Virus record (IMG/VR): IMGVR_UViG_2531839301_000007
Location: 14,596 to 78,595 of that record
DNA: 64,000 nt
From: a virus
Taxonomy: Duplodnaviria; Caudoviricetes
Direction: 5' to 3' (one strand)
The notes beneath the pieces were generated by a model, which searched no databases, was not told where the DNA came from, and was given only the letters and a program-made list of their open reading frames with translations. The first letter of the stretch is position 1, and every line of letters begins with the position of its first letter. This document shows positions 12,301 through 55,455 of the stretch, in pieces. The position numbers were made by a program, and so were the translations under genes.

Positions 12301-12376
12301 GGAAAGATGGCAGACGCGGTGTATGCGCCGGACTGAAAATCCGGTTAAGGTGATTCGATTTCATCTCTTTCCACCA
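12301..12376 (+). tRNA. tRNA-Phe(GAA) with encoded CCA
   Basis: Acceptor GGAAAGA/TCTTTCC; anticodon arm CCGGA CTGAAAA TCCGG. Confidence 0.85.
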
Positions 12377-12441
12377 TTCAGTATTGTACAGGAGACGGGG
12401 GCGCATTGGGTCGATATATTGAATTTCAAATCCCTCTCATC

Positions 12442-12563
12442 GGCGTGACGGTGAATAGTTTAGTGGTCGAAAACACCAGTACAAACAATTACTTCGTAGT
12501 TGCAAATGCGAGTATGACTGATGAAAACCTATACGGTGTGGTTCAATTCCCACAGGTACGCCG
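12442..12563 (+). ncRNA. tRNA-like RNA with non-canonical central domain
   Basis: GGCGT(G)AC/GTACGCC acceptor-like stem, GTTT/AAAC D-like arm, TGTGG-TTCAATTC-CCACA T-like arm. Confidence 0.4.
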
Positions 12564-12601
12564 CAATGGGGTATCGCAGGTCAGGTGAGTATAGGTATGT
12601 T

Positions 12602-12674
12602 GTCCGGTTAGCTCAATTGGTAGAGCAATACACTGTTAATGTAAAGGTCGGTAGTTCGATTCTATCACCGGGCG
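12602..12674 (+). tRNA. tRNA-Asn(GTT)
   Basis: Acceptor GTCCGGT/ACCGGGC; loop CT GTT AA. Confidence 0.9.
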
Positions 12675-14334: not shown

Positions 14335-15501
14335 ATGGAAGTTAGAGATAGAGAATTTTATGATTTGATTGCCCGTGGGCTTGAAAACAATGGTATTTCT
14401 TTTCAGGATTACATTGACGAAATGTTTGCTGAAAAGTATAATAAGCCCGAAACTCCCGGATTTGATTGGGAACCGGATATGCAGGATGATTTTGAGTTTA
14501 AGCAAATCTCCGCAACTGCTCGTGTATATACGATGGCAACGTATGTTGATTTCGACTCTCCCGGTCCGGTTAAGCACACAGAAGGCTTCGAGCTTGGTAG
14601 TGACAAGATGCCTCGTATGAAGCATGAGTTCAATATTGACGAAGCTAAAATCCGCTTGCACATGCAAGCATTGCAACAGTTCGGGGTGTTCTCTGAACGT
14701 ATGGCACAAAGTGTTGAAAACTTGCTGTTTGAAAGCACTGATATGTTGCTCGGTGGTAACTACAACTCTTTGAAGTTCCAACGCCATCAAGCCGTATCTA
14801 AAGGTCAGTTTGATATTATCGCGGAAAACAACCCGCAAGGTATTACAGGTGTCAGCATTGATTTCCATGTACCCGGCAAGAACCGTTGGGAAATTGCTTG
14901 GTGGAAGAAAGATGGTACTCTGAATGCGGATATCACACCATTGGAAGACCTGAAAAACAAGGTTACTTATATTCGTCAGACTTGCTATGCTCCGGTAGAC
15001 CATATCGAAGTAAACAAGATTACATGGGACAAGTTCATTATGATTCCGGCTGTAAGACAGGCTCTCGGATACATCAAGAATCCGTTGGTTACTACTGCTG
15101 ATGCTGCCGTACAAATTGGCGTGAGCTTGCTGGATGATGAAATGAAGGTCTTGGTAGAGAAGTATGTTGGTGCTCCTATTACCATTATTGATAGTGTTTC
15201 CGTTGTAGAGAAGTTCGACAAGAAAACTCGCACGGTTTCTACTCCGACATTGCAGAGTTTCGATGAAAATGTATTTGTTTTCGTTCCTTCTTCTCGTATC
15301 GGTACGATCAAGGCGGTAACTCCAATCGTAATCAATGATCCGGCGGCTCGTATTGCTTTCTATGATGAAGGACGTACCGTAATCACACAGACTTTTGATG
15401 CCTATAACAAGGTACAGAAGATTTCGAGTGAGCTTACAGCATTGTGCGTGCCGAATGTGGTGAGACAAATGTATTACCTGACTGTAAAGGCAAGTAAATA
15501 A
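14335..15501 (+). CDS. Major capsid protein (HK97 fold, inferred)
   Basis: 388 aa, position after scaffold/decoration and before connector genes. Confidence 0.8.
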   Translation: MEVRDREFYDLIARGLENNGISFQDYIDEMFAEKYNKPETPGFDWEPDMQDDFEFKQISATARVYTMATYVDFDSPGPVKHTEGFELGSDKMPRMKHEFNIDEAKIRLHMQALQQFGVFSERMAQSVENLLFESTDMLLGGNYNSLKFQRHQAVSKGQFDIIAENNPQGITGVSIDFHVPGKNRWEIAWWKKDGTLNADITPLEDLKNKVTYIRQTCYAPVDHIEVNKITWDKFIMIPAVRQALGYIKNPLVTTADAAVQIGVSLLDDEMKVLVEKYVGAPITIIDSVSVVEKFDKKTRTVSTPTLQSFDENVFVFVPSSRIGTIKAVTPIVINDPAARIAFYDEGRTVITQTFDAYNKVQKISSELTALCVPNVVRQMYYLTVKASK

Positions 15502-54408: not shown

Positions 54409-54489
54409 TGGACGGTGCCGGAGTCGAACCAGCCTCACGGATATTGGTGCACCTCACCGTAGTTTCAGCCCACGATAACACAACCGCCC
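54409..54489 (-). ncRNA. tRNA-Ala-like RNA with 16-nt anticodon loop
   Basis: Acceptor GGGCGGT/ACCGTCC with G3:U70 and A73; T arm GCTGG TTCGACT CCGGC. Confidence 0.65.
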
Positions 54490-54533
54490 TTATTTCCCGG
54501 ATACCAAACCAATGGACACCGGGATTTTTATTA

Positions 54534-54653
54534 TCATTCAGCGATAATCGCAAGCTGACCGCAAGCGGCACCATTTTCAATCTCTGACTTTGTAGCTATT
54601 GCCACAGCATAGTCATACCCTAAATTTTCTAACTGTTCTTTAATTTCCTTCAT
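54534..54653 (-). CDS. 39-aa peptide carrying the RlmN-type catalytic AACGQL motif (not in ORF track)
   Basis: Hand translation MKEIKEQLENLGYDYAVAIATKSEIENGAACGQLAIIAE. Confidence 0.8.
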   Translation of the reverse strand: MKEIKEQLENLGYDYAVAIATKSEIENGAACGQLAIIAE

Positions 54654-54672
54654 AACTTTGTAAATTAATTGT

Positions 54673-55455
54673 TTATACTAAATTCACACCTTCAATAATA
54701 CCTTCTCCCAAATGATTTTTTTCAGAAATATTATTAGGGTTTATGGGAGATAGTTTTATGAAGAAGTGCTTTTTATCGAAATATTTCTGAAGTAACTCGG
54801 CATTAAAATCAGATTCATCTACCAGTGTAAGATTAATAGTCGTTTTTAGATTACTTTCAGTCCGTATTCGACCAAGTTCTTCAATAGACATCTTTGATGG
54901 ATATGGGATAAGCCAATTCCGTTTTTGTTCATCAAAACTATGTAGACTGATTTGTAGAGTGATATTATCTTTAATAAAAGAGAAATCACTTCCCTGTATT
55001 CCTATTGTTGAAATGTAATGGTGGGTATTGGGATATACCTTCGATATACGTTCAATAGCTTCCTTTACAGCCTCTATATTCAAAAAAGGTTCACCCATTC
55101 GAGTATAGTTTATTTTAAACTCTTTAGCACTTTCAGGATTAAAACCAGCCTTCTTTATAGCAAAAAAGACTTGTCCCACTATTTCATCGGCTGTTAGATT
55201 CCGATATTTCTTCATATTCCCAGTTGCACAAAATTTGCATCTCACAGGGCAACCGCTCATTGTAGATACTCCGATCATCCATCGTTCTGAACGATTACCT
55301 AAATTGGAATTATCCAAAGAGTTTTGTTTTCTTCCTATTGCATCTTTTGTATAAAATGGGAGAAAGGTATCAGTCGTTTCTACTAACATTCCATCTTCAA
55401 GTTGGAGGCAATACACAACTCCATTCTTGAAATTCTTTTGTTTTTTTATTTCCAT
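54673..55455 (-). CDS. RlmN/Cfr-like radical SAM RNA methyltransferase, N-terminal part
   Basis: SGCPVRCKFCATG, MGEP, ISLH, LSPINP; lacks terminal AACGQL. Confidence 0.85.
   Translation of the reverse strand: MEIKKQKNFKNGVVYCLQLEDGMLVETTDTFLPFYTKDAIGRKQNSLDNSNLGNRSERWMIGVSTMSGCPVRCKFCATGNMKKYRNLTADEIVGQVFFAIKKAGFNPESAKEFKINYTRMGEPFLNIEAVKEAIERISKVYPNTHHYISTIGIQGSDFSFIKDNITLQISLHSFDEQKRNWLIPYPSKMSIEELGRIRTESNLKTTINLTLVDESDFNAELLQKYFDKKHFFIKLSPINPNNISEKNHLGEGIIEGVNLV

Follow-up and report, generated by a model that had tools for sequence, protein, structure and literature searches.

A tRNA-Ala-derived RNA with a palindromic loop, predicted in temperate phages of Bacteroidales

The DNA analysed here (the window) is a stretch of 64,000 nucleotides (nt), positions 14,596 to 78,595 of IMG/VR record IMGVR_UViG_2531839301_000007. 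It is part of a 78.6-kb IMG/VR provirus, and its carrier is a temperate gut phage of the Bacteroides type. On the minus strand it holds an 81-nt tRNA-shaped element that is a real, conserved gene under selection. Comparison with relatives indicates that this gene encodes a stable RNA that does not decode and descends from a phage tRNA-Ala(UGC), and that the feature under selection is a palindrome in its enlarged anticodon loop, which is kept self-complementary. With moderate confidence, we propose that the loop of this tRNA derivative pairs with a second copy of the same RNA, in the way of the dimerisation initiation site of human immunodeficiency virus 1 (HIV-1). An earlier note on this DNA recognised the element but missed the palindrome as the selected feature. 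New here are the descent from an alanine tRNA, the maintenance of the palindrome by compensating changes and the finding that the RNA is not generally linked to a neighbouring RlmN-like gene; a literature search found no paper in which a tRNA-like RNA of a phage has a palindromic kissing loop.

Structure, ancestry and conservation of the RNA

Like a tRNA, the RNA has an acceptor stem of 7 bp that ends in a discriminator base and a T stem of 5 bp with a 7-nt loop of the UUCRANY type (UUCGACU), and it retains the anticodon stem and the GG and T-loop elements that build the tRNA elbow. The D region, about 22 nt between the 5′ acceptor strand and the UACGG stem, keeps an invariant GG and the G11-C28 pair; its stem is only about 3 bp long in the window copy, and alternative folds exist. 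Compared with a canonical tRNA, the RNA has a remodelled D arm and a short variable region. A tRNA has a 7-nt anticodon loop with U33 and a 3-nt anticodon; here the loop has 16 nt and no U33. The sequence features on which the earlier note based its alanine-identity mimic (G1-C72, G2-C71, G3:U70, C4-G69, A73 and a canonical T arm) are all present on the minus strand between 54489 and 54409. Its description of a 16-nt loop with UGC inside a self-complementary sequence is also correct: the palindrome is GGUGCACC, within UGAGGUGCACCAAUAU, where it sits between UGA and AAUAU as an apical palindrome of at least 6 nt with unpaired purine flanks.

Standard tRNA and RNA-family annotation misses this element. 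ARAGORN makes no call on it in the default, intron, pseudogene, mitochondrial or tmRNA (transfer-messenger RNA) modes, and Rfam returns nothing at gathering score. At E ≤ 10, the sole Rfam match is tRNA-Sec (20 bits, E 0.12; threshold 47 bits). As predicted from its sequence, the RNA cannot decode, because it has no 7-nt loop and no U33 and is not called a tRNA by ARAGORN or Rfam. A search pattern built only from the acceptor, the T loop and their spacing has a single match in the window and none in 100 shuffles, and the DNA form of the palindrome, GGTGCACC at 54446–54453, also occurs only once in the whole window. The fold of the single sequence is unremarkable (z = −0.9), and the structural case therefore rests on covariation among relatives.

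A scan that specified nothing but the acceptor and the T loop recovered diverged relatives together with an ordinary tRNA-Ala(UGC) gene. This gene, L392:3082-3157, is a canonical tRNA-Ala(UGC) within a phage tRNA array; its acceptor, GGGCGGU/ACCGUCC-A, is identical to that of the window element and its anticodon loop is UUUGCAC, which makes the UGC in the enlarged loop meaningful. A further scan, with acceptor and loop both free, added an 81-nt sister group that has a cloverleaf with a 7-bp acceptor, a 2-nt linker, a clear 4-bp D stem (GUUU/AAAC), an anticodon stem of 4–5 bp, a 12–14-nt loop, a 4-nt variable region and a T arm. Covariance model R1, built from the main family, scores the sister RNAs at 44–60 bits (E 1e-9 to 1e-13) and the tRNA-Ala(UGC) of L392 at 32.5 bits (E 7e-6), the top score among the ordinary tRNAs searched. 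The ancestral 7-nt loop UUUGCAC has grown to 12–19 nt and has been rebuilt around UGC-A-C as a purine-flanked palindrome. The anticodon loop of tRNA-Ala(UGC) already contains a 4-nt palindrome, UGCA (U34–A37), and GGUGCACC is that core plus two pairs. For the host counterpart, a guessed tRNA-Ala pattern found no match in two draft genomes.

The main family was collected with a D-loop and loop pattern that left the acceptor free, run over metagenomes, genomes and IMG/VR contigs. It matched 68 metagenome stretches (3 of them spurious), most from human gut, and six genome contigs, from Bacteroides timonensis, B. muris, B. acidifaciens, two Parabacteroides and a Tannerellaceae metagenome-assembled genome; IMG/VR contigs carry the RNA as well. 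We thus recovered 29 distinct main-family variants, and 176 loci carry the element in all. The family is abundant in prophages of human-gut Bacteroidales and is present in the cultured strains B. acidifaciens DSM 15896, B. muris NM69_E16B and B. timonensis AP1. No match was found by blastn in phage GenBank records.

In the alignment of the 29 variants, the acceptor helix and T arm are paired in nearly all cells or in all of them, with several pairs changed on both sides (Table 1), and the anticodon-type stem is paired in 99% of cells, with one of its five pairs changed on both sides (C-G to U-A). None of 500 shuffles reached the observed values, and slid controls were 34–52% paired. The most conserved parts of the main family are the loop and the D region. 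In a scan in which the loop was not specified, the loop began with the same 13 nt in more than 98 contigs, apart from rare single changes. The 3′ part of the loop varies in length, among AAUAU, AAUAAU, AAUAUU, AACAAU and AAAAU. Three models for the centre of the molecule were rejected: the 9-bp hairpin of the single-sequence minimum-free-energy fold shows no compensatory change and several broken cells, a model derived from the ARAGORN output for L167 is only 63% paired, and an RNAalifold model is based on invariant pairs only.

The palindromic loop and its possible partners

In scans that left the loop unspecified, other palindromes occupy the same columns of the relatives: GGCGCGCC, GGGGCCCC, GUGCGCAC, AGGUGCACCU, GUGCAC, CCACAUGUGG and GUUGCGCAAC. 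Relative to the window palindrome, GGCGCACC is the single-change form and GGCGCGCC the form with the compensating change. The palindromes of the relatives are located at the apex of a covarying stem that is itself fully rewritten, as CUGC/GCAG and UUAC/GUAA, and their flanks are purines (GA...GA or GA...AA). In a nine-sequence alignment of the sister group, all four palindrome pairs are 100% complementary and three of the four have changed on both sides. The innermost pair, which went from GC to CG in that alignment, consists of the adjacent bases 38 and 39. Adjacent bases cannot pair within one hairpin, and the constraint must therefore come from pairing with a second copy or from a ligand with two-fold symmetry. 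Loop shuffling gave p values of 0.003–0.06 for each of six different palindromes. As isolated self-duplexes, the palindromes are predicted to be worth −13.7 to −19.1 kcal/mol (−14.5 kcal/mol for the window copy), and every palindrome occurs only once in its locus.

Other roles for the loop were considered. As an antisense sequence, it has one perfect match in the window, the element itself, and one match with two mismatches that is at chance level; in three host genomes there was no excess over a reversed-pattern control. Some 7–8 nt of the loop may be complementary to 23S rRNA beside A2503, a match that we judge to be at chance level. No removal of 9–10 nt yields a consistent 7-nt loop, and an intron was rejected because the part of variable length would land in the ‘anticodon’. 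A kink-turn or loop-E arrangement of the loop flanks does not fit, as judged by eye only.

Two copies of the RNA therefore probably pair through their loops, to the extent that sequence can tell. Under this proposal, RNase P and 3′ trimming would cut the RNA from the early transcript, and the CCA-adding enzyme would complete its end. The loop would then pair in trans with its counterpart on another molecule, and the product would be a symmetric homodimer of two tRNA-Ala bodies, held by a kissing loop or an extended duplex. Most speculatively, such a dimer could mimic tRNA early in infection and so occupy a host factor that binds tRNAs, with a tRNA-cleaving defence nuclease or alanyl-tRNA synthetase (AlaRS) as candidates, and the RNA may be alanylated, although this would not be essential across the family. 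Recombination genes of the kind found near the RNA set off some defences. In its most specific form, the proposal casts a symmetric dimer of still-chargeable tRNA-Ala bodies as an early-infection sponge for a tRNA-directed host factor, which could be AlaRS or a tRNA-cleaving defence nuclease triggered by the nearby recombination genes; we regard this as a long shot. Defence systems that cleave tRNAs are now widely documented (PMC10264068, PMC11555353, PMC12445682), and natural functional RNA homodimers are rare (PMC7357161). If the sponge proposal is correct, no other natural RNA derived from a tRNA would be known to depend on homodimerisation for its function. A tRNA-derived homodimer would interest research on RNA structure and on phage–host conflict. 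An identifiable ancestor and a visibly maintained self-complementary loop turn ‘function unknown’ into something testable, through dimerisation, charging and the binding partner.

Several observations weigh against this proposal. L413, a close relative, differs in its acceptor and has a closed loop of 5 nt, and a 69-nt paralogue (L372) has a loop of only 5 nt; the large palindrome is therefore not universal. The search patterns fixed parts of the sequence, and many contigs are near-identical, so that the cases counted are not independent of each other. There is hardly any variation in the central 45 nt of the main family, and thermodynamic predictions favour other local hairpins. No protein gene accompanies the RNA across its contexts, which leaves a decoy role without direct support. 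Finally, the same covariation would arise if a symmetric protein recognised the palindrome, on RNA or on DNA.

That last possibility, a binding site for a dimeric protein with no RNA–RNA contact, we consider unlikely. It would account for the self-complementarity, including that of the central adjacent pair, and the palindrome cores do resemble the 6–8-bp sites typical of DNA enzymes. At least six palindromes would, however, demand six protein specificities that changed together with them, and no neighbouring protein is universal across the 176 loci. There is one palindrome per locus rather than a set of operators, and it always stands at the apex of a covarying RNA stem in a tRNA frame.

A doubtful but more serious contender holds that the RNA is chiefly an alanine acceptor, charged by host AlaRS through G3:U70, with the alanyl-RNA used outside the ribosome or serving to titrate AlaRS. 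AlaRS ignores the anticodon, and the window copy has the full identity set of G1-C72, G2-C71, G3:U70 and A73 on an acceptor identical to that of the genuine phage tRNA-Ala(UGC) of L392. A73 is present in 28 of the 29 variants, pairs 1-72 and 2-71 are invariant, and A73-C74 is always encoded, with the full CCA in some sister RNAs. In scans that left the acceptor free, 34 of 40 variants have G:U at 3:70 (27 of 29 in the main family and 7 of 11 in the sister group); the others have A-U (three), G-C (two) or an unrelated acceptor (one). In E. coli, however, A-U or G-C at this position abolishes alanylation. The A-U variants (L167, L408 and L410) and the G-C variants (L255 and L422) represent at least four separate losses, and 3:70 has changed about as often as the neighbouring acceptor pairs. 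In addition, 4:69 is C-G against the usual G-C, no enzyme that uses aminoacyl-tRNA is linked to the RNA, and the selected palindrome would be left unexplained. Because G3:U70 was lost at least four times, alanine charging is possible but not essential to the family; for the window copy, its sequence makes charging possible, and charging is not what holds the family together. The identity set described in the earlier note is present in the window copy; across the family, neither G3:U70 nor the loop size (12–19 nt), the two properties whose conservation the note set as its test, is fixed.

The earlier note also suggested that the RNA is a substrate of the adjacent enzyme, a split RlmN/Cfr-like radical SAM (S-adenosylmethionine) methyltransferase that has PDB 5hr7 among its matches. 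We now find a role as its substrate or partner very unlikely. The gene pair does lie directly upstream on the same strand, RlmN methylates A37 of tRNAs, and the ancestral A37 survives within the palindrome. Elsewhere, the same cassette is trailed by a tRNA-shaped RNA within 450 nt in 34 of 81 entries, compared with 0 of 76 in each of two sets of control regions. However, these RNAs are of six types, unrelated and without an alanine acceptor. The RlmN-like gene adjoins the present RNA in only 11 of 87 entries, on 8 contigs, all of the window's own lineage; in sister phages such as L083, L085 and L159 the cassette is missing, and the hairpin and RNA follow immediately on the preceding gene; and an RlmN-like gene is absent from all five of the other carrier phage records, of which two are at least 99% complete. 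The enzyme seems to be drawn to tRNA-type loci in general and not to this RNA, and the linkage across phages that the earlier note proposed to check was not borne out.

The element might also be a mere processing signal, a tRNA-shaped site at which RNases P and Z cut the early polycistronic transcript while the upstream hairpin protects the new 3′ end. It is embedded co-directionally in early operons; a stable hairpin lies 3–14 nt ahead of G1 in all 21 clusters of upstream sequence, with at least six unrelated hairpin sequences; and the trailer is tRNA-like, with the form N73-C-A-A/T common to the element and five of the six ordinary tRNAs of the window. The acceptor and T arm are all that RNase P requires, but the loop and D region are the most conserved parts, and the palindromy of the loop is upheld by compensation. 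We judge this explanation highly improbable; processing probably accounts for the production of the RNA and not for its existence. Least credible of all are a frameshift or bypass adaptor, a ribosome-rescue RNA and a decaying tRNA pseudogene. An enlarged loop and an alanine acceptor would recall tmRNA, but 81 nt hold no tag reading frame and no pseudoknots, and both the tmRNA mode of ARAGORN and Rfam come back empty. Known frameshift suppressors have loops of 8–9 nt, whereas this one spans 12–19 nt with a 3′ half of variable length and lacks U33, which speaks against the frameshift or rescue adaptor put forward in the earlier note; decay is excluded by the covariation and wide conservation.

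Genomic setting and neighbouring RNAs

The coordinates of the element and of the adjoining gene are collected in Table 1. In all contexts the RNA is co-directional with early genes for recombination and replication, which encode RecT and a resolvase in the window and Erf-like, RecE-like/exonuclease, SSB or NinG proteins elsewhere. Linkage to the Holliday-junction resolvase was examined and dropped, with a tRNA-shaped RNA upstream at only 4 of 76 homologue loci.

Table 1. Features of the RNA element and the adjoining gene in the window; pair counts are from the 29-variant alignment.
Feature	Positions	Strand	Remarks
tRNA-Ala-derived RNA, 81 nt (predicted)	54409..54489	−	G1 at 54489, discriminator A73 at 54409; family alignment; covariance model R1 score 109 bits
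Acceptor stem, 5′ strand GGGCGGU	54483..54489	−	G3 = 54487; pairs with 54410–54416; 3/7 pairs changed on both sides, 99% of cells paired
Linker and remodelled D region (UGU, then GUUAUCGUGGGCUGAAAC)	54462..54482	−	GG and CUGAAAC invariant; G11-C28 in 28/29 variants
Anticodon-arm stem, 5′ strand UACGG	54457..54461	−	Pairs with 54436–54440; C-G to U-A in main family
Enlarged 16-nt loop UGAGGUGCACCAAUAU	54441..54456	−	First 13 nt nearly invariant, 3′ part of variable length
8-nt palindrome GGUGCACC	54446..54453	−	Ancestral UGC anticodon inside, then A37 and C38; single occurrence in window
Anticodon-arm stem, 3′ strand CCGUG	54436..54440	−	Covariation in family and sister alignments; AG next
T arm GCUGG-UUCGACU-CCGGC	54417..54433	−	100% of cells paired; 3/5 pairs changed on both sides
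Acceptor stem, 3′ strand ACCGUCC	54410..54416	−	U70 = 54412; family pair counts
3′ trailer CAA	54406..54408	−	C74 encoded, remainder of CCA not
Leader hairpin UCCCGG...CCGGGA	54495..54524	−	Ends 5 nt ahead of G1
Split RlmN/Cfr-like radical SAM gene	54534..55455	−	260-amino-acid core 54673–55455; 39-amino-acid open reading frame with GAACGQL 54534–54653

The RNA often lies within arrays of tRNAs and other odd tRNA-shaped RNAs. One such array, L190:10125-10869 (minus strand), has four genes on the same strand: an odd tRNA, a 98-nt Leu-like RNA, a 67-nt tRNA-shaped RNA in which the anticodon arm is closed by a 4-nt loop, and then the palindromic-loop RNA. A hairpin precedes the last two genes and probably the other two as well. 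The 69-nt paralogue mentioned above lies at L372:1211-1279 and has an alanine acceptor; the relative with a different acceptor is 74 nt long (L413:12878-12951). L349:7861-7952 and about 30 similar contigs carry GC-rich RNAs of 91–93 nt with the same Ala-type acceptor (GGGCGG...CCGUCCA) and T arm. Their centre is different and without a palindrome, and they look like a separate family of alanine-acceptor mimics.

Insert-bearing tRNAs also occur. At L184:4708-4819 (minus strand), an insert of 43 nt, flanked by UUUCAU and UUUUCAU, interrupts the anticodon loop of a perfect tRNA cloverleaf (Rfam tRNA, 59 bits); the arrangement recalls the unexplained introns in tRNA genes of Lak megaphages. In the window itself, the last part of the 225-nt gap between tRNA-Phe and tRNA-Asn (12377–12601, plus strand) resembles a T arm and the 3′ strand of an acceptor, with the usual G-C-A-A-T trailer. 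This gap may hold an insert-bearing tRNA-shaped RNA; Rfam found nothing in window positions 12370–12605.

The RlmN-like cassette has peculiarities of its own. The position of the RlmN resolving cysteine (E. coli C118, seven residues before CxxxCxxC) is Gly62 in 41 of 41 distinct phage homologues. Cys16 of the N-terminal extension is invariant among these homologues, and the methyl-carrying cysteine is on the separate 39-amino-acid peptide. In L002–L081, within 450 nt downstream of that small open reading frame, are six unrelated RNA types of 74, 82, 143, 167 and 187+189 nt, some with Leu-like D arms.

Comparison with known systems

The tRNA-like domain of tmRNA, which uses G3:U70, and viral tRNA-like structures such as that of turnip yellow mosaic virus resemble the window RNA in being non-decoding with an acceptor end that looks chargeable. 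They differ in that the window RNA lacks a tag frame, pseudoknots and a match to the tmRNA models, and would be a free small RNA rather than the 3′ end of a genome. Species 1 and 2 of phage T4 (rnaC and rnaD) and the tRNA-like RNAs of T5 are phage-encoded, lie near tRNA genes, undergo tRNA-type processing and do not decode. Non-decoding tRNA-shaped phage RNAs of the T4 species 1 and 2 type are long established and have no known function; the T4 and T5 RNAs are not known to have a palindromic loop or an alanine acceptor. Compared by description and not by sequence, they are alike in being phage-encoded, non-decoding and associated with tRNA clusters; the host differs, the present family being found in temperate phages of Bacteroidales.

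The tRNA genes of Lak megaphages have ‘enigmatic’ introns (Devoto et al. 2019, PMC6784885). These are also gut-phage tRNA genes with extra anticodon-loop sequence, and neighbouring loci here show inserts of 43 nt and 122 nt. In the window RNA, by contrast, removal of the extra 9 nt leaves no usable anticodon loop, the boundary of the insert varies, and the loop sequence itself is the conserved part.

Canonical tRNA-Ala(UGC) (Rfam RF00005; for example, that of L392) shares with the window RNA the acceptor with G3:U70 and A73, the T arm, the GG of the D region and UGC-A-C in the loop. The window RNA departs from it in a loop of 16 rather than 7 nt, the loss of U33, a remodelled D arm and a short variable region. 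The loop itself is most like the HIV-1 dimerisation initiation site, a palindromic kissing loop with the core GUGCAC or GCGCGC and purine flanks (PMC7357161). The comparison is one of analogy between unrelated RNAs; the phage loop is set in the tRNA frame of a DNA phage, and its dimer is predicted from sequence. Both have an apical GC-rich palindrome with the core variants GUGCAC and GCGCGC, purine flanks and compensating changes.

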